Position numbers and translations under genes: made by a program
Part shown: one piece after another, positions 6,630-48,800 of the stretch
Layout of the letters: each line of letters opens with the position of its first letter
Position numbering within the stretch: the first letter of the stretch is position 1
Notes under the pieces: model-generated
Databases searched by the model: none
What the model saw: only the letters and a program-made list of their open reading frames with translations
What the model was told of the DNA's origin: nothing
Source of the DNA: Ginglymostoma cirratum
Taxonomy: Eukaryota
Direction of reading: 5' to 3'
NCBI GenBank assembly: GCA_024137785.1
Contig: JAHRHZ010000063.1
Coordinates: 53,896,514-53,960,513 of the forward strand
Length of the DNA: 64,000 nt

Positions 6630-6875
6630 TAGAGATAATAGGAACTGCCGATGCTGGAGAATCCGAGATAACAAGGTGTAGAGCTGGATGAACACAGCAG
6701 GCCAAGCAGCATCAGAGGAGCAGGAAGGCCGACGTTTCCGAAGAAGGGTCTCGGCCCAAAACGTCAGCTTTCCTGCTTCTCTGATGCTGCCTGGCCTGCT
6801 GTGTTCGTCCAACTCTACACCTTGTTATTATTACACCAACAGTGATAGTCCGGCATCTGCAGTTCTTACTATCTC
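6630..6875. mobile_element. Penelope-like pLTR foldback (family A) with degenerate hammerhead motif
   Basis: Two inverted arms of about 105 bp around ccgaagaagggtctcggcccaaaacgtc (6738-6765). Flanked by acggctaacaacagt (6612-6626) and acagctaacaacagt (6876-6890). Arms are homologous to the ends of the Penelope at 13469-16231. Confidence 0.85.
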
Positions 6876-9498: not shown

Positions 9499-9577
9499 TG
9501 TTATTTCTGCAAGACGGTACTACTTTGAGGTGCTCCACAAGCAGGATGATAAGGGGTCAGACCATGTAGAAGTTGGG
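9499..9577 (+). CDS. B4GALNT4: Internal coding exon of beta-1,4-N-acetylgalactosaminyltransferase 4 (PA14 domain)
   Basis: Acceptor cttctcctttctccacag and donor ggg|gtaagt. 79 bp = 1 nt + [26 protein letters not shown], matching recalled human B4GALNT4 [23 protein letters not shown] better than B4GALNT3 (KQNEEGTDHVEVA). Confidence 0.92.
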
Positions 9578-12018: not shown

Positions 12019-12723
12019 CAATGTCAGTCTTAAAATTTTAGGTAATTCAGACATAAATGAATTGTGCGTAAATTTCCTCCATCCTTTCCGCTAGCACTAT
12101 ACAAAGCTCAGTCAGTACACTCTGCTGTTTGTTGATATAGCTCCATACTCCATGCAACTTCCAGACATTCCCTTAATTTACACTTTCTTCAACTGGCTGT
12201 AGATTTTACACCCAAAATTGTAGGATGTAGTATGACCCAGAGTCATACATCTGATGCGTTATCACTGTTTCCAGTTTATACTTCTGACCAAGATCTAAAC
12301 TGTACTTTCTGTACCATTTATAATGGAAACAATGTAAACTAAATTTGGTAAACAAGCAACTTATACCCTCCTGTCCATGGTGGTACATGAGCACACTGCC
12401 ACACCATGGTATCTATAAAATATTGAGGATCTAGTGCTGAAAAATTCCTACTGTCCAAACAAACCTTCGTCTCAAGTTATTACCCTTGTCTTGTTTGGTT
12501 TGAAATAAATCTATATATTATATAAAGTACATATATAATATTTGATGGTAAAATTGTTGTGGAATTACTTATGTGTTCTTAGAAAAATTATTCACCCCCA
12601 AACACATTTTATCTGAACACTACAGTTGATTTTGTAGACTTATTTGTAATGCCGTAGAGAATTAGTTTGTGCACACGTGTGTTTCCACATGTAACACACA
12701 TAATCAACATATCCTGAATGCAA

Positions 12724-12807
12724 GATAACAAGCATGGGGCTGGATGAACACAGCAGGCCAAGCAGCAGCAGGAAAGCTTGACGTTTCGGGCCTAGACCCT
12801 ATCTCTG
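12724..12807 (-). mobile_element. Short Penelope pLTR copy (family A), truncated inside the hammerhead motif
   Basis: Minus strand reads agggtctaggcccgaaacgtcaagc... Perfect 15-bp TSD atatcctgaatgcaa at 12709-12723 and 12808-12822. Confidence 0.85.
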
Positions 12808-13216
12808 ATATCCTGAATGCAAACAGCTCAGGAGGATTTTCCCCAACAAAAGAATGAACGCCTTGTAAAAGAGCAAGTGTCAATCCTGTGATTCTTAGAG
12901 AAGTTTAAATCATGGTGACAAACTTTAGAACGGGTGTTGAATATTGCTGAAAAGCAAAAACAAATGTAAGAATGGCAAATTTAAAATGATCACAAAATTC
13001 AAGTTGTAGGAATAACAAAGATTGGTTGCCATGTTCATTCTTAATTGACAATGTTTTCATGGAGAAAGTCATTTGGACCGAAGAAAAGTAAACCAGCGTT
13101 TAAACAAGTGGAGAACAATACAGCCTTATGGTTATGTGAGACTTCCTTCACATATTTGGACATTAAAATCCTGCAGCCGTGAAAGAGAATGGAAACCAGA
13201 GTTGGTCATTGAACCA

Positions 13217-13343: not shown

Positions 13344-13568
13344 TTGAACCATCCTGTTTAGAGTTTATGTTAAAAGATAAAGATTGACGATAAAATAGTG
13401 TCTGATTTTGAAGAGAAGCAAAAGAAGTTACTGAATCCAAACAATAAGAAACTCAATCCCAGAAAATTTCTGAGACAGTAAGAACTGCCGATGGTGGAGT
13501 AAGAGATAACACAGTGTGGAGCTGGAGGGACACAGCAGGCCAGGCAGCATCAGATGAGCAGGAAAGTT

Positions 13569-13598
13569 GGCGTTTCAGGTCCGGGGACCCTTCTTCAG
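13569..13598 (-). ncRNA. Hammerhead-like motif in the inverted 5' pLTR (degenerate)
   Basis: Minus strand CTGAAGA A GGGTC cccg GACCT GAAA CG CC. The cleavage triplet is mutated. Confidence 0.5.
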
Positions 13599-16141
13599 AA
13601 ATATGGGAGGGCGAAGGGAGCTCGGAAATAAATAGAGAGGAGGGGTGGGGCTGGGGAAGGTAGGTGGGATGGTGATAGGTGAGTGCAGGGTACCCTGCCA
13701 CCAGCTTTACACCCAACCCCACCTTAAGCCCTGCCGGGTCTTCACCGTTCCCCAGACTTGCCCCTCACTGAGGACAAATGGTCAGTCCTCAGTAAAGGAC
13801 TCACCTTCACCCCCTGCGCCCACACATCAATGAATTCCATTCATGCTTGGACATCGAACACTTTTTCCACCACCACCGCTACATGCCTATTTCTTTAACT
13901 GTGAGTCTAACCCCCCCGCTTCTACAGGCCCCTTCTCTCCCCTTCCAACACACCCCATCCTCCTGGACACCGCCCCAAAGCCTCCTACCCTCCCTGGACC
14001 TCTTCATCTCCAACTGCCATCGCGACATCGATCGCCTCAACCTCTCCACCCCTCTCACCCACGACAACTTGTCCCCCACAGAACGCGCAGCCTTCCGCTC
14101 CCTCCACTCCAACCCTAACCTCACCATCAAACCTGCAGATAAATGTGGGGAGGGGAAGTGAGCACAGGAGTGGTATAGCGCACTGACCTTTACATAGCTG
14201 AGGCTAGGTGCCAACTCTCTGACACCACCTCCTACCGCCCCCTTGATCATGACCCCACCCCGACCACCAAAACATCATCTCGCAAACTGTTCACAACCTC
14301 ATCACCTCACGTGACCTCCAGCCCACAGCCTCCAACCTCATCCTTCCCCAACCCCACACTGCCTGTTTCTATCTCCTTCCCAAAATTCACAAACCTGATT
14401 GCCCCGGCCGGGGCATTGTCTCTGCCTGCTCCTGCCCCACCGAACTTATCTCCACTTACCTTGACTATGTTCTTTCCCCCCGGTCCAGGAACTCACCACC
14501 TACGTCCAGGAAACCACCCATGCCCTCCACTTCCCTGGTCCTCAACACCTCATCTTCACCATGGACATCCAATCCCCATACACTTGTATCTCCCACGCAG
14601 ATAGCCTAAAAGCCTTCCGCTTCTTCCTCTCCTGCAGACCCAACCAGTCCCCCTCCCCGACACCCTCAACTGCTTTGCTGAACTCGTCCTTACCCTTAAC
14701 AACTTCTCCTTCAACTCCTTCCACTTCGTACAGACAAAGGGGGTGGCCATGGGAACCCATATGGGCCCAAGCTATGCCTGCCTCTTCTTAGGATACGTGG
14801 AACAATCCCTCTTCTGCAGCTACACTGGCACTATCCCCCACCTTTTCCTCCACTACATTGATGACTGTATCGGCGCTGCCACGTGCTCCCACGAAAAGCT
14901 TGAACAGTTCATCAACTTTACTAACATCTTTCACTCCAACTGCAACTTCATCTGGATCATCTCGGACACCTCCCTCTCCTCCCTGGACCTCTCCGTCTCC
15001 GTCTCCATCTCCATCTCTGGTGACCACCTCGAAACTGATATCAATTTCAAGCCCACCGACTCCCTCAGCTACCTAGACTACACCACCTGTCACCCACCTT
15101 CCTGCAAGAATGTGATCCCCTGCTCCCAATTTCTCTGTCTCCGCCATGTCTGCTCCCAAGATGGGGCGTTCCATTCCCGAACATCCCAGATGTCCTCTTA
15201 TTTCAAGGACTGCAACTTCCCCCTTCAGTGGTCGAAAATGCTCTTGACTGCATCTCTTGTGTTTCCCGCACCTCTGCCCTCACATCCCCTCCCCACAACA
15301 AAAACAAAGACAGAATTCCCTTTGTCCTCACGTATCACCCCATTAACCTCCAGATTCAACGTATTATTCTCCGCCACTTCTGCCATCCACAATCTGACCC
15401 CACTACGAAAGATCTATTTCCCTCCCCACCCCTATCTGCCTTCCGTAGGGCCCGCTCTCTCTGCGACTCCCTCATCCGCTCCACAATCTTGGCTAGCCCC
15501 ACCACCCCCGGCACCTTTCCTTGCAACTGTAGGAAGTGCTAAACCGGCCCCTACACCTCCCCACATCACCACCGCTGCCCCCCCGTCACCCCCCGTCACC
15601 TCCATTCAAGGCACCAAACAAACCTTTCACATCAACACGTGTTCACCTGCACATCCACCAATGTGGTCTATTGCATCCGCTCCTCCTGATGGACCTCCTC
15701 TACATCGGTGAGACCAAGCAGAGGCTTGGAGACCACTTTATAGAGCACCTGCTCTCTGTTTGCGACAAACAACACTTTCCGGTCACAGACCATTTCAACT
15801 CACCAGTGTCACAACAACACCACCTGGAAACTGGAGGAGCAGCACCTCATATTCCGCCTTGGAAGCCTGCAACCCGATGGTCTTAATGTGAACTTTATTA
15901 TTTTCAAAATCTCCCCACCCCCCCTGCCTCATCCTATGACCAAACCTCCCTCTCATCCCCGCCTCCTTGACCTGACATAACCTGACATGTCCATCTTCTC
16001 TCCTATCTATCCGTTCCTCCACCTTACTGACCAATCCCCACCACTGCCTACCTGCACTCACCTATCACCATCCCATCTACCTTCCCAGCCCCACCCCTCC
16101 TCTCTCTCTTTATTTCTGAGCTCCCTTTCCCCTCCCCATTT

Positions 16142-16169
16142 CTGAAGAAGGGTCCTGACCCGAAACGTC
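16142..16169 (+). ncRNA. Minimal type I hammerhead-like motif in the 3' pLTR
   Basis: CTGAAGA A GGGT cctg ACCC GAAA CG TC. Core and stem II are intact but stem I pairing is not evident. Confidence 0.6.
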
Positions 16170-16654
16170 CCCTTTCCTGCTCCTCTGATGCTGCCTGGCC
16201 TGCTGTGCTCCTCCAGCTCCACACTCTGTTGTCCCAGAAAATTGCTTCTGTATTTACACTTCACACCTTCCAGTTGCAACAAGCCCGAGGCATCATCAAT
16301 GATCAATAATGTTGTTCGTGATAAAGTGAACCAGACCAAACCAATTTTCTGACCCAAGACCTGGGAAAGCTGTACACTGTGCTCTAAATGAGCAAGGAAG
16401 CTCACTATGAAAATCATAGAAAATTAAGCCACAAATAGTAAATTCACTTTCGTTTGGAAGAAACTTGAAATTCATAGAAATTGAACTTTAAGCTCTAGCT
16501 ATCAACTGAGATTTGGAAGAGTTGATCCTTACAGTCTGTCTTGATAGTATTATTAAATGGTGTAAATGTGACAACAATGGAGAGAACATTACTTGTGCGG
16601 TATGGAGTGAATTGGTTCAAAATGCGTTCGCAATGTCATGTTCAGATAGTGTTG

Positions 16655-26740: not shown

Positions 26741-27640
26741 AGAGATCCATTGCATCCACAGAAGACCTCTGCACTTCAAAATAGTTTATCCTGAAAAAAT
26801 GAGCCTGAGCCCAAAGAGATACTAAGCAGCTACTTCTGTGAGTAGCATTAAAAAATAAAGAACATAAGAAATAATTATTTACATTGTGAAATAATCCATA
26901 ACATTTATGTAATATGAATGAGCGTTTGAACTAACGTTTGGTTGAAATTGTCCTCATCCCTTGGCAGATGGAGTAATGATTTGCTGTTGGGTCTCTGGGT
27001 CATTGAATCATGAAAGGTGTACTCATCCTAGCAGATACAAAGTCCACTCACAGAAGTGACTGCCATGCTCTGAGAATCCTTGACAACAAAAGCTGAATTT
27101 CTGCCAGAATGACAAGAAAGAATGTATGCAATGAGAATTTACTGGAGTTATATCAGGATTGCCATGTCATAGTCCTGTAGAAATACTTGAAAAATTAAAG
27201 TTTTTCATAAGAACATGGACGGTCAAAGGACAATTTGGAAGAAATAGTCAAAACTTTAAAGGTAAGTAATGAAATATCATTGTCATCAGTTAGCGTATTA
27301 ATAAAAGACTAGATAATGGTTAGATTACTCATTAAACTGGAGGTAGATGAAGGGTTTAGGGGAAAGCTAATTTGCCTTTTCTCTTTCCCACATTCCTCCT
27401 TCAGATTCTACTGAATAATAATAGCTGCTGCATTTATCATCTAATCATCAAAATGGAACAGTTGCTGGATGGGGAAATTGAATGCCAGCTGTAGGTTGAT
27501 GACTGGGTCTTTTTATATTATTTCTAATTTAAAAATAGATGCATCAGTCCGATGAGAATGTTTGTTCATCATAATGCCCAGAAGGCATCTCTAATTAAAT
27601 AGCAGGGTGAGATCTAAGCAGACCAGACCCCTCTGATAAT

Positions 27641-28192
27641 ATAACAAGCATGGGGCTGGATGAACACAGCAGGTCAAGCAGCATCANNNNNNNNNNNNNN
27701 NNNNNNNNNNNNNNNNNNNNNNNNNNNNNNNNNNNNNNNNNNNNNNNNNNNNNNNNNNNNNNNNNNNNNNNNNNNNNNNNNNNNNNNNNNNNNNNNNNNN
27801 NNNNNNNNNNNNNNNNNNNNNNNNNNNNNNNNNNNNNNNNNNNNNNNNNNNNNNNNNNNNNNNNNNNNNNNNNNNNNNNNNNNNNNNNNNNNNNNNNNNN
27901 NNNNNNNNNNNNNNNNNNNNNNNNNNNNNNNNNNNNNNNNNNNNNNNNNNNNNNNNNNNNNNNNNNNNNNNNNNNNNNNNNNNNNNNNNNNNNNNNNNNN
28001 NNNNNNNNNNNNNNNNNNNNNNNNNNNNNNNNNNNNNNNNNNNNNNNNNNNNNNNNNNNNNNNNNNNNNNNNNNNNNNNNNNNNNNGTCAAGTTTTCCTG
28101 CTCCTGTGATGCTGCTTGACCTGCTGTGTTCATCCAGCCCCATGCTTGTTATCTCGGATTCTCCAGCATCTGCAGTACCTTTTATCTCTGAT
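27641..28192. mobile_element. Penelope family A insertion with inverted ends spanning an assembly gap
   Basis: Left arm 27641-27686 is an exact inverted copy of about 28107-28152. 17-bp direct repeat acccctctgataatata at 27627-27643 and 28202-28218. Confidence 0.85.
27687..28086. other. Assembly gap (400 N)
   Basis: Run of N characters. Confidence 1.
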
Positions 28193-28417
28193 ACAATTTT
28201 TACCCCTCTGATAATATACTCTCCTTCACTGTTTTGCGTCAAGTCACAAAATGTTACAATTCTCAACCCCTAAGCTTTGTTGCTTACTAAAGTCTTATTC
28301 CAACAGAACCCCATTTGTTATAAAAGAGAGTACTCGCTGCAGAGAACTATAAATCTGGGGACTTCATTTATTATTCTGAAAGCTATTCATTTTAACTGCT
28401 ATAGGTGGTGTGTCCCA

Positions 28418-31172: not shown

Positions 31173-31348
31173 AAACAGAAACAGAAATTACTGGAAAAGC
31201 TCAGCACGTCTGGCAGCATCTGCGGAGAGAAGTCAGAGTTGACGTTTCACTGTGACCCTGGACACTGGACCCGAAACGTCAACTCTGACTTCTCTCCACA
31301 GATGCTGCCAGACGTGCTGAGCTTTTCCAGCAATTTCTGTTTTTGTTT
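31173..31348. mobile_element. Penelope-like pLTR foldback (family B)
   Basis: 76-bp arms (31173-31248 and 31273-31348) with 3 mismatches around a 24-nt loop holding a hammerhead stem II remnant (ggacccgaaacgtcaact). Confidence 0.85.
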
Positions 31349-31404
31349 TTGATTTTCTTTTGGTTTTTATCAGACCTTCTAAGTGTCCAGGCCCTGTAGT
31401 CTGT

Positions 31405-31543
31405 AGTCTGGCATATAAACTGACGTTTTCCCAACCACCATCAGTTCTGAGGAAGGCTCACCGGACCCGAAACGTTAACTCTGTTTTCTCCCCCACAGAT
31501 GCTGCCAGACCTGCTGAGCTTTTCCAGCAACTTTGTTTTTGTT
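31405..31543 (+). mobile_element. Penelope-like pLTR (family B) with type I hammerhead motif
   Basis: AGTT CTGAGGA A GGCTC accg GACCC GAAA CG TT AACT at 31443-31480. Stem I is intact and stem II has one mismatch. Flanks cctgtagtctgt (31393-31404) and cctgtggtctgt (31544-31555). Confidence 0.8.
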
Positions 31544-32676: not shown

Positions 32677-33933
32677 CGCTAATGGGCTAAAGGACTCCTA
32701 CAGTGCAACAGTGTACCTCATTTGCAACAATGTCCAGTGAACGACTACATGCAGCTCAATACTGATACGGACCTAATATTGAATTTGGTTGTTTGTCTTG
32801 TGTTTGTCACTGCAGTCAGTCACGTAGGAAACTATCTGTTATGTCTCTGGATTTACAATTTATCTGAGAACTCATTAACATAAGCAAGGTTGTTGCCGTG
32901 GTAGTGTGTTACCCTCAAGTAACATCTACCTGTGTTTTTATCTGTCATGCTGATTTTTTTTTGGAGTGTTACAATATAAAGCGTTGAGTTGCAGCTAAGT
33001 TTTCCAGCAGAGATTGGAATGTTTTTACCTTTATTCCACACTAATTGGCTCAAAATATTTTTTAGTCACATAATTGCACCCTCACCCCAATGCTGCTCAT
33101 TCAAGGTGTCGTTAACTTTTCAAATATTAGCATATTGTTCAGTTGATTTTGATTCTTGTGGAAAAAATATTTCACAACAACTCCAGAAAATTACTTACTA
33201 TAGCTGTATTTCCTAACGTGAAGATTTTGTACGCGTTAAGAGATTGAGGTAACACTGGGAAAATTTGGGTTTTCCCTTTTCTAGAAAAGTGATGACCTTG
33301 TAAAGCAGGCATCTCCACCTGTATTTAGCTGGGGCCACCTATCTTATTCTTTAACATTATTGTGGTGTCAGATTAACTCTACCACTCGTGTGGGCTATTA
33401 CTGCAAAAGATAATGGCGAGGTGTTTCGATGAAGCCATAAACTTATGTAACGAAGGCACAAATTATGTTATTCCCTTCCTCACACCTTTGCATGGAGATA
33501 AACTAACTCCTTAATGTCTGAAAAAAGCCAACACTTGGGTCACAAACTAATTGGAGCTACATCAACAAAAATGTTCTCATTTAATTTTGCTGAATAAAAT
33601 CAAGTCAGTGATTTTCAGCCCATTAGAGCTTCCTTTTGTGTCAGCAGGCACCACCTGTATGTCCAGCTTCATGCAAAACAATGTTTGACACTGTTCAAAG
33701 AAGAACTGAGTGTTTGATGTCAGTTCCTAAATTAACAGCAGCAAACCAGATTAATTGCTCACTTCTTCACTATTTGTGGGAGGTCATTGTGCACTACGTG
33801 ACTGCCTTTTGTCAATGCAACAACATGGGTAGAGGTAATGGCCTAGTGCTATCATTGTCGGACTGTTGATCTAAAGACCCAGCTCAAGTTCTGGGGACCC
33901 AGGTTAAATCCTGCTTCGGCGGATAGTGGTTTG

Positions 33934-35207
33934 GGAGCAGTGCATTGCCAAAGTGAAGAAGAAACTGGTATGTTGGAAGCACCACTCCCTCTCCATTGAA
34001 AGTAAAAACCTGGTCACCAGGTGTGAGGCACTCTCTCTGTTGTTGTTCGTGGCACAGTTTTGGCCCATCCCCCAAAACAGCGGTGTGTCAGTCAGCCGAG
34101 CCATTTTCCATTTCATCTGGAAGCCTAAGATAGACCATGTACAAAACTCTGGATATAGTGGGGGAAGGGGGGAACGTACCCAATATCGCCCTCATCCTGA
34201 ATGCTACCTTTGTGTGCAACTGTATCAAGCTGTGGGAAGACAATTGCTACGCAAACACCAAGTGTCACTACGCACTGAGGTTCTACCTGTCCCCGGTGTT
34301 GTGAAGGATGGGACTGGCCTCACTGCCACAGAATGCTCCAAGTAGTTGGACCATTCTGTATCACCTGTCTTTTGTAGGGAAAGTTGCAAAGAAAATCACC
34401 TTTGACCACCAGTCCAGCAGGAAGTGGTCAGCACACAGACCCTGAGGGAAAAGGAGAAGGTGGATCCTGTTGCGTGGTGCCCTAAACAGGCTGTCAAAGT
34501 CATTTGGCAGAATGCCTCATCACCAGAACTTTCCAACAAGCACCAAGACATCACTTGGCTGGTGGTGAGAAGGGCACTACCTGTGAGATCCTTTTGTACG
34601 CCCCATCAGTCTGCACCATTGCACACTGCCCTCAAAGAGGCGGTGGGGCGGTTGAGACTTTCACACATCTCCTTCTGGGGATGTGCCTTTGCAAAGGAAG
34701 TCTGGAGGAAGATGCAGTGGTTTCTGTCGAGGTTTGTCCTGAGCAGCTCGTGGCATGGGACTCTGTGCCCTATGGTCTGTTCCCCAGGACATGCACAGAG
34801 ACAAACATCAACTGCGCCTGGAGGACTATCAACTCGGTGAAAGATGCTCTTTGGTCTGCTTGAACCCTGTTGGTCTTCCAGAACAAGGAGTTGACCCCGA
34901 CTGAGTGTTGCAGACTGGCACGTTCCAAGGGCCACGACTACATGCTGAGGGACGCACTACAGGTTGGGGCAGCTGCTGCCAAGGCGCAGTGGGGGAAGAC
35001 AACCATCTTAGGTCTTTCTGCTGAAAGTAAATGGGGATCCATTCAGCTATCGGACCCTCCCAGTGTCTGAAATGGATGTAAATGTTAGTATTGTGTATAT
35101 ATAAGAGAGTTGGAAAGAGTCAAAGTCCAATGTTTTTGTTTTGTTTATTTGATATGTAACTGTAGAGACCTTAGGAATGAAGTATATTTTTGAAATATAA
35201 AAAAAAA
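33934..35207 (+). mobile_element. Tx1-clade (L1 group) LINE, 5'-truncated
   Basis: WEQCIAKVKKKLVCWKHHSLSIESKNLV...AIFHFIW and NKHQDITWLVVRRALPVRSF...ETFTHLL...CAFAKEVW (zf-RVT). Poly(A) end and a degenerate TSD of about 22 bp. Confidence 0.88.
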
Positions 35208-39958: not shown

Positions 39959-40139
39959 AAATAAAAACTGGAAAGAACTGCAGATGCTGTAAATCCGAAA
40001 CAAAACCGGAAATTGCTGAAAAAGCTCAGGAGGTCTGGCAGCATCTGTGGAGAAGAATCAGAGTTAACGTTTCGGGTCGAGTGACCCTTCCTCGGAACTC
40101 AGAACCTGCTGAGCTTTTCCAGCAATTTCTGTTTTTGTT
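39959..40139 (-). mobile_element. Penelope-like pLTR (family B) with short inverted segment
   Basis: Homologous to 31440-31543. The segment 40103-40139 is inverted relative to about 39999-40035. Confidence 0.82.
40061..40100 (-). ncRNA. Minimal type I hammerhead ribozyme fold (U4C core variant)
   Basis: Minus strand GAGTT CCGAGGA A GGGTC actc GACCC GAAA CG TT AACTC. Perfect 5-bp stem I, perfect 5-bp stem II and palindromic ACGT in place of stem III. Confidence 0.75.
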
Positions 40140-41865: not shown

Positions 41866-42211
41866 TTAAAAGAATCACAGGCCCTTAACAGTTTTGCCTG
41901 TAAGTTATTAAATTTGAAACACGGTTGATTTACTAGTGGTTAGTAGGAAAAGGAATACCACAGTGATTTGGCGGAGGTGGGGAAGAAATGTTCAGTTTAA
42001 TATGACAATTCTTCGGGATATGAAAATAAATCAAAAGAACAAAACGACCTACAGTTGGGTCCGCAGAACTGTCTGTCCCAGGCTGCAATTAGCCTGAGTA
42101 GCCACAAGTAGGTGGCTGTATTTGGTGATCAGCAATAAATGATGTTCCTTTCCACTCAAGCTTCCTGAGTTAGTTCACATTGTCGTGAAGGAGACCAGGA
42201 CTTGGCTAACA

Positions 42212-42338
42212 GAGATAAAAGGTACTGCAGATGCTGGAGAATCCAAGATAACGAGGTGTGGGGCTGGATGAACACAGCAGGCCAAGCAGCATCATAGGAG
42301 CAGGAAAGCTTGACGTTTCGGGCCTAGACCCTTCATCA
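42212..42338 (-). mobile_element. 127-bp Penelope pLTR unit (family A) beginning at the hammerhead core
   Basis: Same length and ends as 13217-13343. Perfect 9-bp TSD tggctaaca (42203-42211, 42339-42347). Confidence 0.9.
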
Positions 42339-43399: not shown

Positions 43400-43979
43400 A
43401 TTATTGATGGTGTACCTGGATATATTTGCACAGTTGACAATATTGCAGTCGTGGACTTTGAGGAGCACATTTAGGGCAATTGTTAGTGACATCATCCTCA
43501 CCAGGATGACAGTCAATGCAATTTGCAATAAAAATTACTCCCATGCCATCCAAAGTACTGAGCCTATTTTCACATGCCATGTGCCTGTTTGTGAGGACAC
43601 TTCCATGTGACTGTTAGAAGAGATACATAGCTGCTTACTCAAAATACATGCACACCGCAGATCCCCAGCATGTGTGGTAATCATGACCTGCATGCTCAAC
43701 AATCGATTAAGAAGTCCAGGAAGCTGTAAGGGTAATAAACAGTCAGCATCATTCCTTCACCACCAAAGGCAATGTCCATGTCAATATGATGGGCGCACAC
43801 GCACTCAAAGATAGTTGTGTAATAGCTATTTCCTGATTTCCACATGCAAATGTAATGAAAGAAATAGTGGGATAGTCCCACTGACCTATCAAGGCTGCTC
43901 CACCATTCAGCACAATCATTGACTGACTTCCTTGCCTGCCCCTTTCCATAATGTTTGATTCCCTTGTCATACAGTTTTC

Positions 43980-44725
43980 AAAAAGACCTGCATTTATATT
44001 CTACAGCCTTTCATTTCAAACAGAATATCTAAAAGCACTTTTTATGGACAATTAGAAATGGCCATTTCTGAAGAAGGGTCTAGGCCCGAAACGTTCAGCC
44101 TTTCTGCTCTTCTGATGCTGCTTGGCCTGTCGTGTTCATCCAGCTCTACACCTTGTTATCTCAGATCCTCCGGCATCTGCATTTCCTACTACCTTTGAAA
44201 CAATTTTAACCCCACTGCGAAGCCTCTTCTAAGGATGCCTACCCTGAAGAAGTTACCCTCCTCCCTCCGGAACAACCTCAGTGGATCTCCCTGCCACTGC
44301 AACTCTCTCATAATCTCTTCGGCCTTGAAACTGCTCGACCACGTCCTGAAGCAAACCAGTTACTACAGCCACATCGCCTTTCTTAGTACATGCCTACGGA
44401 CCATTTCTGAAGAAGGGCCTAGGCCCGAAACGTCTGCCTTCCTGCTCTTCTGATGCTGTTTGGCCTGCTGTGTTCATCCAGCTCTACACCTTGTTATCCC
44501 TCTTCATGGACAATTTTGTGTTTACACTCTGTCGCTGCCGTAAAGTAAAAAAATGTGGCAGCCATTTTTGCACACAAAAAGGTTCCACAAACAGTGATTC
44601 AATGATCCACCAAATAATCTGTTTTGGTGAACCTTAATTGAGGGATAAATATTGGTTAAGACCAATTGTCTAGGAGCCTCCTTATTCTTTTTCTGCATTT
44701 GAGAGGGCCTCAGTTTAGCATTCTA
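43980..44725 (-). mobile_element. Old Deu-domain-type SINE remnant interrupted by the tandem-hammerhead insertion
   Basis: L2-like tail (acctgcatttata...aaagcactt) left of the insertion. Body continues right of it (gcagccatttttgcacac...gagggataaatattgg...gggcctcagtttagc). Confidence 0.5.
44054..44505 (+). mobile_element. Non-autonomous Penelope derivative with two tandem hammerhead-containing pLTRs (retrozyme-like)
   Basis: Direct repeats 44062-44160 and 44401-44498 (period 339), each starting ccattt CTGAAGA A GGGY ctag GCCC GAAA CG TY. The spacer encodes a PLE-like ORF N-terminus (MPTLKK...SHIAFLSTCLR). 10-bp TSD atggacaatt (44044-44053, 44506-44515). Confidence 0.88.
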
Positions 44726-45119
44726 AAAGTTTAGTTTCCTTTCCACTCTTTAATTAGCAATATGTTCAAACGACAACAATGGAACATTTCTGCCTTCACA
44801 GAAAATCAGGACCAGTGTGTAGAGTAAGGCTAATGCAATAGTTCGTTTTGCACCTCAGATTTACCATGGATCTTGTGCATGATGCTTTAAAATAACTGTT
44901 CAGAAGCAGACATTTTAACTCGCCCATTTACTTAGAGTTAAAATTGGGTCATTGCGTTGCTACTGACTCTTGGTGATATTGTTAGATCGTGCTACTTTTA
45001 ACGCACCTCAGGATTATTGTGTAATAACCCAGATGAGTATGTGCTGCCTTTAATAAGTTTGGCAAAAGATGCGATTCCAAAATACTGCAGTAGATGGTTC
45101 ATTGCCACTCAGCATTGAA

Positions 45120-45400
45120 GGGCACCATGGTGGCTCACAGCCCCAGGTTCAATTCACCCTCAGGCAACTGTCTGTGTGGTGTTTGAAAATTCCCTGTGTC
45201 TGTGTGGGTTTCCTCTGCGTGCTCTGGTTTCCTTCCACAGTCCAAAGATGTGCAGGTTAGGTGGGTTGGGCTATGGGATATGCAGATTTACCCGGAAGGC
45301 GGTGGGTCTGGGTGGCATGCTGTTCAGAGGGTCGATGTGAACTCAATACAATTTTAACCTCAATGGGCCTAGTGGCCTGCTTCCACACTGTAAGGATTCT
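45120..45400 (+). mobile_element. HE1-type V-SINE, diverged
   Basis: gggcaccatggtggc...ggttcaatt...tgtctgtgtgg...gtccaaagatgtgcaggttagg...ggcctgcttccacactgtaaggattct. Confidence 0.8.
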
Positions 45401-46660: not shown

Positions 46661-47000
46661 TCATAGAATCATAAAATCATAGAATCCCTACAGTGTGGAA
46701 GCAGACCATTCAGCCCACTGAAGAGCATCCCACTCAGACCCCCCCCCTACCATATCCCCTATAATACTGCATTTCCCATGGTTAATCCACCTAACCAACA
46801 TATACTTAGACACTATGGGCAATTTAGCACGGCCAATCCACCTAACCTGCACATCTTCGGACAAGTGGGTGGAAACCGGAGCACAGACATAGGGAGAATG
46901 TGCACATTCCACACAGACAGTCGGCCAGGGCTGGAATCGAACCTGGATCCCCTGATGCTGTGAGGAAACAGTGAAAGCCACTGAGCCACCGTTCTGCCCC
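46661..47000 (-). mobile_element. HE1-type V-SINE
   Basis: Reverse-complement copy of 705-1016 with tail repeats (catagaat)n. Confidence 0.85.
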
Positions 47001-48013: not shown

Positions 48014-48080
48014 TGGCGGCCATTTCTCCCTGGAGTGAAGTTTGAGATTATCAGTTCACCGCACATCTCGCTGTACACAG
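48014..48080 (+). CDS. B4GALNT4: Next internal coding exon of B4GALNT4
   Basis: Acceptor gtctttgttctag, branch-like ctgctcac about 25 nt upstream, donor cag|gttagt. 67 bp = WRPFLPGVKFEIISSPHISLYT + g, continuing in phase 0 from exon 9499-9577. Matches recalled human [23 protein letters not shown]. Confidence 0.92.
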
Positions 48081-48427
48081 GTTAGTCATTTGCAATTCAC
48101 TTTCATTTACATGAAATTCTTGATGCATGGATTCTAGGTGGATTTTGGTGATCACCAGTGTTGCCATTGAGTAACCATGGCTCCACCCAAAAGTTCCCAG
48201 ATATTTACTGGAACGCAACTGCTGTATTTTCCTTCCTGTTATGTAGCCAACTGCAATGGATGAAAGGTAACTACGCAAATGCTGTAAATTTCACATAAAA
48301 TGCTGGCAATGCACAACTGGCTCAGAAAGAAAAATAATTGTTTCTGCGGTGCATATCCAAATCGTCTCAGAATGCTAATCGTTTTTAGCAATTATTGGTT
48401 GGAATATAACAGGTGTGAAATCTGTCT

Positions 48428-48674: not shown

Positions 48675-48800
48675 GGAGTGTGGAGCTGGAGGAGCACAGC
48701 AGGTCAGTCAGCATCCGAGGAGAAGGAAAGCCCTGATGAAGGATCCTGACCCGAAATGATGACTTTTCTGCTCCTTGGATTCTGTCTGATCTGCTGTGCT
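48675..48800. mobile_element. Penelope family A foldback with hammerhead motif
   Basis: Inverted arms joined at CTGATGA A GGAT cctg ACCC GAAA (48733-48756). Confidence 0.7.

Follow-up and report, generated by a model that had tools for sequence, protein, structure and literature searches.

A Penelope-like element insertion with two hammerhead-bearing repeats in a B4GALNT4 intron of Ginglymostoma cirratum

Minimal hammerhead ribozymes (min-HHRs) were described in the pLTRs of metazoan Penelope-like elements (PLEs) by Cervera and De la Pena (2014, PMC4209133). PLE hammerheads show weak activity in vitro, one of them being protein-assisted (PMC4209133, PMC11167929). PLE insertions are known to include partial tandems, inverted repeats, inverted stumps, palindromic junctions, tails and target-site duplications (TSDs) of 8-10 bp (Arkhipova 2013, PMC3846280; Craig 2021, PMC8557442). 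In the Anolis Poseidon element PAc, the tail marks two adjacent internal start sites of the reverse transcriptase (RT), and that account describes the PLE cycle after RT initiation as unresolved (Frangieh 2024, PMC11167929).

Retrozymes are a second group of relevance here, and their circles are highly self-paired (Cervera and de la Pena 2020, PMC7229834). A preprint by Li et al. (2026, 10.64898/2026.07.22.740005) reports retrozymes in a single chondrichthyan genome with a mean length of 363 bp and derived from PLEs, as well as in vitro cleavage in one of nine retrozyme dimers. The PLE origin of animal retrozymes so far rests on phylogeny.

Here we analyze an insertion at 44054-44499 that carries two hammerhead motifs, within a 64-kb stretch of Ginglymostoma cirratum DNA (the window). 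The original prediction took it for a mini-element of the retrozyme type. We find this reading poorly supported, the locus being retrozyme-like in layout only. It is likely, in our judgment, that a single old insertion, shaped by an RT template jump, placed the hammerhead-bearing end of a PLE twice around a broken open reading frame (ORF) start, and that it is probably inert today. A one-off template switch, which the original prediction had named as the alternative, fits better. A literature search that covered mainly open-access papers listed no work on hammerheads of shark PLEs or on junctions of this kind.

The insertion and the element family it belongs to

The insert is sense to its host gene and lies within a 38.4-kb intron (9578-48013), 3.5 kb upstream of the next exon. 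Two exons of this gene, both short, were found in the window. The previous exon (9499-9577, forward strand) encodes residues 247-272 of the shark B4GALNT4-type protein P0014 with 100% identity, and the next exon (48014-48081, forward strand) encodes residues 273-294 with 95% identity. These residues are consecutive in shark B4GALNT4-type proteins, which defines the intron and bears out the predicted position of the insert, sense to the B4GALNT4 pre-mRNA (stretches compared with the proteins: 9500-9577 and 48014-48079). The nearest proteins are of carpet shark origin, and a Pfam search of both exons gave no match. The protein matches are named N-acetyl-beta-glucosaminyl-glycoprotein 4-beta-N-acetylgalactosaminyltransferase 1, and one is labelled B4GN4; apart from the latter, we take this name to denote B4GALNT4.

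A perfect 10-bp repeat, ATGGACAATT, occurs in the window only at 44044 and 44506, and recurrence of a 10-mer at a comparable distance was seen in 1 of 20,000 random draws. It forms the core of the left target-site copy (44038-44053, core 44044-44053) and of the right one (44500-44515, core 44506-44515), both on the forward strand. Over these longer stretches 14 of 16 letters match, or 15 of 16 with the C that the relative sequenced in run X6 carries at 44043, as in the right copy. The predicted 10-bp duplication thus stands as a core, within a duplication that is probably 16 bp long. Since the duplication is read in this way, the insert probably extends to 44499, a single base beyond the common 3' end of its family, and measures 446 bp rather than the 452 bp first proposed.

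Starting from the left, the insert begins with an inverted copy of the first 8 bases of the element (44054-44061, reverse strand), which together with those bases forms a zero-loop 8-bp palindrome centred on 44061/62, one of five in 63,569 positions. The predicted inverted start is thereby confirmed, and this 8-nt fold-back is probably what remains of the inverted arm that PLE insertions commonly carry, a stump. There follow, all on the forward strand, repeat 1 (44062-44160), a PLE terminal repeat bounded by the 5' start and the 3' end that copies of the family have in common; its tail of about 35 nt (44161-44195), which contains a second cluster of copy ends at 44187-44195 and loose ends at 44191; the first 55 codons of a PLE ORF (44235-44399); a junction between ORF codon 55/56 and the common 5' start (44396-44404), the presumed point of template jumping; and repeat 2 (44401-44498), with the identical 5' start and common 3' end and with the tail absent. 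In a direct alignment, the two repeats (98-99 nt) agree in 92 of 99 columns, or 93%, with six substitutions and one indel. They start at the same base of the element and 339 nt apart, as predicted, so that the insert holds 1.3 units with two cores 339 nt apart. The spacer was correctly described as containing an ORF start and neither RT nor endonuclease: it consists of PLE leader and broken ORF, within a TSD of 10-16 bp. The absence of RT and nuclease follows from the first unit being the 5' end of the element, broken on its 3' side.

By its sequence, the insert is a 450-base fragment of an abundant, endonuclease-bearing (EN+) PLE. A 12-mer of the repeat is matched 13 times in the window, where 1.0 match would be expected, and BLAST with inspection yielded nine other insertions of the same repeat and three of a second subfamily, making the locus one of 13 hammerhead-repeat insertions within 64 kb. 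The spacer ORF is 82% identical to the Stegostoma protein P0002, the ORF of which continues beyond the junction position, and 65% identical to the Chiloscyllium protein P0126, which matches both the spacer and an RT-bearing long copy at 13701-14141 (E 7e-20). From 100 representatives related to P0002, we scanned the four with an N-terminal match (882-927 residues) for domains; GIY-YIG was matched in all four and RVT_1 in three, several of these matches lying below the Pfam cut-off. This agrees with the proposed PLE origin of the insert. Pfam searches of the spacer peptide, P0002 and P0003 gave no match.

A decayed, 5'-truncated Neptune-like PLE of a related subfamily occupies 13472-16238 on the forward strand. 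It comprises an inverted repeat with tail, RT, the remnant of a Zn-finger-like linker, GIY-YIG, a 3' hammerhead repeat and a 10-bp TSD that ends in AATT, as does that of the 44054-44499 insert. PLE features at the insert itself are a pLTR with a minimal hammerhead motif, which also flanks the long copy, the tandem and inverted layout, the tail and the TSD. The CX2-5CxxC linker between RT and endonuclease, a remnant in the long copy and intact in the homologue P0215, belongs to a region absent from the insert; by the criterion given in PMC8557442, this linker of the related long copy suggests that the family may fall in the Neptune clade.

Several other copies and repeats were noted in the window. 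Head-to-head fold-back insertions of the repeat are present at 6631-6874, 27638-28210, 31173-31355 and 48676-48800, of which the second spans the sole N gap of the window (27687-28086). A short reverse-strand copy at 12716-12808 has a 13-bp TSD and an 8-nt inverted stump from the tail end, which parallels the stump at 44054-44061. Outside the window, a predicted acid phosphatase isoform of Rhincodon (P0124) ends in the same PLE ORF start, reflecting either exonization or a gene-model artefact. Decayed frames at 33908-35026 have a translation that we take to resemble the 3' part of a Tx1/L1-type element, and the repeats at 705-1016, 45142-45269 and 46669-47000 presumably resemble a shark tRNA-derived SINE. 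An Rfam search of the window at E up to 10 returned nine matches and no hammerhead; Rfam hammerhead models require stem III. The best of these, a match to a sibling repeat (RMST_8, 42184-42327, reverse strand; E 0.046, 28.5 bits against a cut-off of 80) was taken as chance.

Hammerhead motifs, predicted folding and transcripts

The two CTGAAGA cores at 44068 and 44407 are confirmed as minimal type I hammerhead motifs. Motif 1 (44068-44095, forward strand) is composed of CUGAAGA, a bulged A, a 4-bp stem II, GAAA, ACGU and U17; motif 2 (44407-44434, forward strand) has the same core elements and C17. The ACGT palindromes lie at 44091-94 and 44430-33, and the predicted cut sites follow 44095 (H17 = T) and 44434 (H17 = C). 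We rejected an alternative in which the topology is type III and cleavage occurs at 44062, because that position is only 6 nt before the core.

The original prediction cautioned that stem I pairing is weak in both copies. In both motifs, stem I lacks any contiguous pair adjoining the core. Letters of the family majority would give a U-A first stem I pair and about two pairs in all. In motif 1 the first pair was lost through a derived change at 44095-96, where the family majority has C and A; in motif 2 it became U-U, the family A at 44435 (8343 of 9996 reads in RNA run X21 and 98% of the depth in X6) having been replaced by a derived T. Because these derived changes differ, the locus lost its first stem I pair twice, separately. 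A second subfamily in the window, with core CUGAGGA or CCGAGGA (31173-31355, 31443-31543 and 39979-40103), has four and five stem I pairs, namely 4 bp at 31447 and 5 bp at 40095 on the reverse strand; the motif at 31447 lies in the sense direction of the host gene. Judged by predicted pairing, these copies would be better candidates for a live minimal ribozyme than the motifs at 44068 and 44407.

In the predicted ensemble, the palindromic stems II of the two motifs pair with each other with a probability of 0.78, and the 8-nt fold-back occupies stem I together with C3-U4 of motif 1 with a probability of 0.4. The 339-nt unit, folded as a linear strand, reaches -65.2 kcal/mol against -68.2 +/- 3.7 for shuffled sequences (z = +0.79; 78 of 100 shuffles fold as well) and is therefore not self-paired. 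The energy gap to the double-hammerhead fold is 17.6 kcal/mol in context and 19.0 kcal/mol for the two motifs alone. We set this gap aside as evidence, because homodimers of sibling copies show gaps as large (7.0, 20.3 and 22.3 kcal/mol), the last of these in a copy with a 4-bp stem I. Dimer cleavage was reportedly described by Lunse et al. in 2017.

If the two motifs were a live ribozyme pair, cutting of the host pre-mRNA and production of circles could follow. According to this interpretation, a double hammerhead forms in the B4GALNT4 pre-mRNA and cuts after 44095 and 44434, and the released 339-nt RNA circularizes. Both cores have kept CUGAAGA, GAAA, the 4-bp stem II and the ACGU palindrome, minimal PLE hammerheads have been proposed to act as dimers (PMC4209133), and one PLE hammerhead needs a PLE protein (PMC11167929), so that a poor predicted fold is not final. 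The evidence is nevertheless against it. Stem I has no pairs in either motif compared with four and five in the second subfamily, through changes specific to this locus; the two stems II are predicted to pair mutually and the fold-back to mask motif 1; and the 339-nt monomer is not self-paired. Eight of nine predicted Xenopus retrozyme dimers remained uncleaved in vitro, according to the preprint 10.64898/2026.07.22.740005.

Transcript data point in the same direction. Run X21, an unstranded polyA RNA run of which about 24% was read and which is a weak test for circles, placed 42,469 reads on the stretch; the 44 reads of X22 are too few to be informative. At 44390, 298 of 308 X21 reads carry the family letter, and depth is 0 in the flanking bins 43930-44037 and 44542-44800; the X21 signal thus comes from other copies and not from this locus. 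A joint going back by 339 nt was not among the 15 of 316 joints listed, in this polyA run with its weak sensitivity to circles. Both motifs are damaged beside the predicted cut site and, on the predicted structures, release of a circular RNA is unlikely. Neither the working double hammerhead nor the released or circular 339-nt RNA of the original prediction is upheld, and we regard the double-hammerhead interpretation as highly improbable.

Copy number, copy ends and the origin of the two-repeat layout

Four of 24 sequencing runs listed were compared (X1, X6, X21 and X22), and copy number was read indirectly from contig depth tables, in which depth is not equal to copy number. X1 is from the same species or nearly so, its mismatches to the two flanks numbering 0 in 243 and 2 in 159 letters. 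Ten bases ahead of the junction, at 44390, the family letter accounts for 1710.3 of 1718.2 depth units in X1; with a flank depth of about 3, the locus letter is present in at most about 3 single-copy equivalents. In X1 and X6, contigs that carry the letters of the family at 44376 and 44390 terminate 25 and 11 letters from these positions, at 44401, and thus seem not to cross the 44400/44401 junction, as read from one distance-to-end column. In X6, 656 of 9498 depth units at 44390 are without the family letter. The junction looks close to single-copy in the same-species run. Scans of metagenome, prokaryote and viral collections for the junction and for family patterns gave no hit, a result that says little about a shark repeat.

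X6 derives from a relative (organism B), two flank contigs of which show 38 differences in 653 letters, a divergence of about 6%. These contigs reach 30 and 28 letters into the element, slightly less than the 31 letters required for bridging. Because they run into the element, the insertion is likely common to the relative and old. An empty site (44053 joined to 44516) was not among the 15 joints listed of 316. The two repeats differ in 7 of 99 columns, about 7%, which is about the divergence of the X6 flanks; as it is no less than this between-species divergence, it gives no indication of conservation. Both repeats have a non-majority T (44110 and 44448), as expected if they came from one source.

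The ends of the copies are informative on how the layout arose. Five arms, repeat 2 included, have their 3' ends near 44160-66 and five near 44187-95, about 35 nt apart, and loose ends in the sequencing runs pile up at 44165, 44191 and 44495-98. Among 12 other arms, six have 5' starts at the equivalents of 44065-44072 and three at 44088-44104, two extend upstream and one lies at the N gap. Repeat 1, repeat 2 and the fold-back all stop at the same base (44062 equivalent). In addition, contigs from sharks contain at least five more junctions that lead from the beginning of the ORF back to 44062-65 or 44401. Their donor positions are 44224, 44238, 44271 and 44272 in X6 and 44341 in X1, and 0-3 letters lie between the joined parts for the donors with listed values (44238 has none). 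Inversion joints at 44062-65 are present among X21 RNA reads. These statements refer to 15 of 316 joints and 12 of 154 between-letter rows, and clustering may be overstated, as junctions landing upstream of 44062 are harder to detect on this reference. Donors 44272 and 44400 are both preceded by a CGGA motif.

The simplest interpretation of the end clustering and junctions is that the family RNA is linear with a fixed 5' end. Linear RNA and a template jump, rather than a circle, are favored because sibling copies begin no more than 10 nt from a common base and at least five other junctions return to it or to within a few bases of it; rolling copying of a 339-nt circle is disfavored because it would have no reason to stop at the shared base 44062/44401. 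The unit border at 44400/01 also differs from the predicted cut sites. The putative transcription start is placed from end clustering and from the initiator consensus, which CCATTTC at 44062 presumably fits; the sequencing runs had no pile-up of read starts that would mark it.

We propose the following course of events. The family RNA would be linear and begin at or near 44062-44064, probably at a transcription start within the terminal repeat. The GIY-YIG nuclease would nick AT-rich DNA, and RT would start internally at its usual site, 44498. Internal starts are supported by the clustering of 3' ends at 44160-66 and 44187-95, the two-site signature of a tail. After 98 nt, RT would arrive at the RNA 5' end (44401) and jump to 44400, a position 339 nt inside another RNA of this type; in a functional cycle the jump would instead lead to the distal end of the ORF. 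The second run would reach the same 5' end (44062), the 8-nt inverted stump would close the left side, and repair would leave the duplication. The copy would afterwards have decayed without selection. Microhomology at the junction is imperfect, requiring the loss of one A relative to the ORF expected from P0002.

A different possibility is that the original insertion was a longer or full-length PLE, from which a microhomology-mediated deletion subsequently removed the central part (about 3 kb). Comparable deletions are described for PLEs in PMC3846280, and the junction could plausibly hold a 3-nt CCA overlap, but a deletion would have no reason to end on the base where repeat 1 and the fold-back begin, let alone to do so from no fewer than five other ORF positions. 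We consider such a deletion quite unlikely.

The locus could also belong to a small non-autonomous family of the retrozyme type and now be dead, a two-repeat 339-nt master having been re-inserted by PLE RT. A transcript of an older two-repeat master, begun at the start of repeat 1 and copied from the RT start of repeat 2, would give an anatomy identical to the present one, which counts against a one-off jump. Moreover, several sibling junctions appear multi-copy: contig depth in X6 is 197 for 44272, 134 and 66 for 44224 and 44 for 44238, compared with 14-16 for flank contigs, and in X1 it is 127 for 44341, compared with about 3. Some of these junctions look amplified, at roughly 4-40 times single-copy depth, possibly as families or arrays. 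The PLE-derived chondrichthyan non-LTR retrozymes averaging 363 bp in 10.64898/2026.07.22.740005 are a further argument for it. For the unit at this locus, however, the limit of about 3 single-copy equivalents on its letter at 44390 in X1, the apparent stop of family-letter contigs at 44401 in both runs, and the lack of a second copy of the spacer beyond 44217 within the window speak against a family, which we judge improbable. Of the predicted retrozyme family mobilized by Penelope RT, the Penelope-type RT holds, by inference, whereas a family built on the 339-nt unit finds no support. A template jump in the course of one insertion thus remains our preferred explanation.

A weaker form of the retrozyme idea survives, since these sharks have further short units built in this way, some of them apparently amplified. 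We suggest tentatively, and with more doubt than confidence, that in shark Neptune-like PLEs a short strong-stop cDNA ends at the fixed 5' end of the RNA and needs a jump in order to continue; jumps that go astray into the beginning of the ORF would keep making two-hammerhead mini-tandems with units of about 160-340 nt, some of which (44224, 44272 and 44341) would have become amplified as protein-free families. If so, the locus would be a stillborn case of a pathway of retrozyme birth that is readable from genomes. Sibling junctions sharing one base could reveal how units with two hammerheads come into being and occasionally multiply, and a high-copy shark family with junctions on one base offers a genome-wide test of strong-stop-and-jump and of the origin of retrozyme units.

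Comparison with known systems

Non-LTR retrozymes, as presented in PMC7229834 and 10.64898/2026.07.22.740005, share with the insert two tandem type I motifs, a unit within 150-450 nt, a TSD of more than 4 bp, the absence of protein-coding capacity and a link to PLEs. By contrast, the insert has only 1.3 units, its motifs are minimal and damaged, and its unit is plain PLE leader and ORF start; the contig tables of X1 gave no sign of many copies, and polyA run X21 none of expression. It lacks two defining features of this group, a complete hammerhead with helix I and a highly self-paired monomer.

The min-HHR PLEs of PMC4209133 resemble the insert in the CUGANGA core, the bulged base before stem II, the G10.1-C11.1 pair, palindromic positions 15-16 and the lack of stem III, and they occur mostly as widespread truncated copies. 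The motifs described there have a helix I of 4-5 bp, whereas the insert has no contiguous pairs and the family majority about two. That account gives a spacing of about 3 kb for tandem pairs and of 100-700 bp for pairs on opposite strands, unlike the same-strand pair at 339 nt found here.

PAc shares with the shark family two adjacent RT starts that match genomic tail ends, and with the insert an AT-rich nick, with ATT as at the end of the TSD (PMC11167929). It belongs to a different PLE clade, and its ORF starts in stem II, whereas that of the insert starts 167 nt after the core.

A further comparison is with the complex insertions of EN+ PLEs (PMC3846280 and PMC8557442). The usual PLE partial tandem has a 5'-truncated copy first, whereas the first unit of the insert is the 5' end of the element, broken on its 3' side. 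Shared with the insert are direct repeats, an inverted stump with a palindromic junction and a TSD. Its family also has the optional tail of 30-40 nt, and in the related long copy RT and GIY-YIG are separated by a Zn-finger-like linker. In conclusion, the locus is a real, ordinary and decayed PLE insertion of a known kind.
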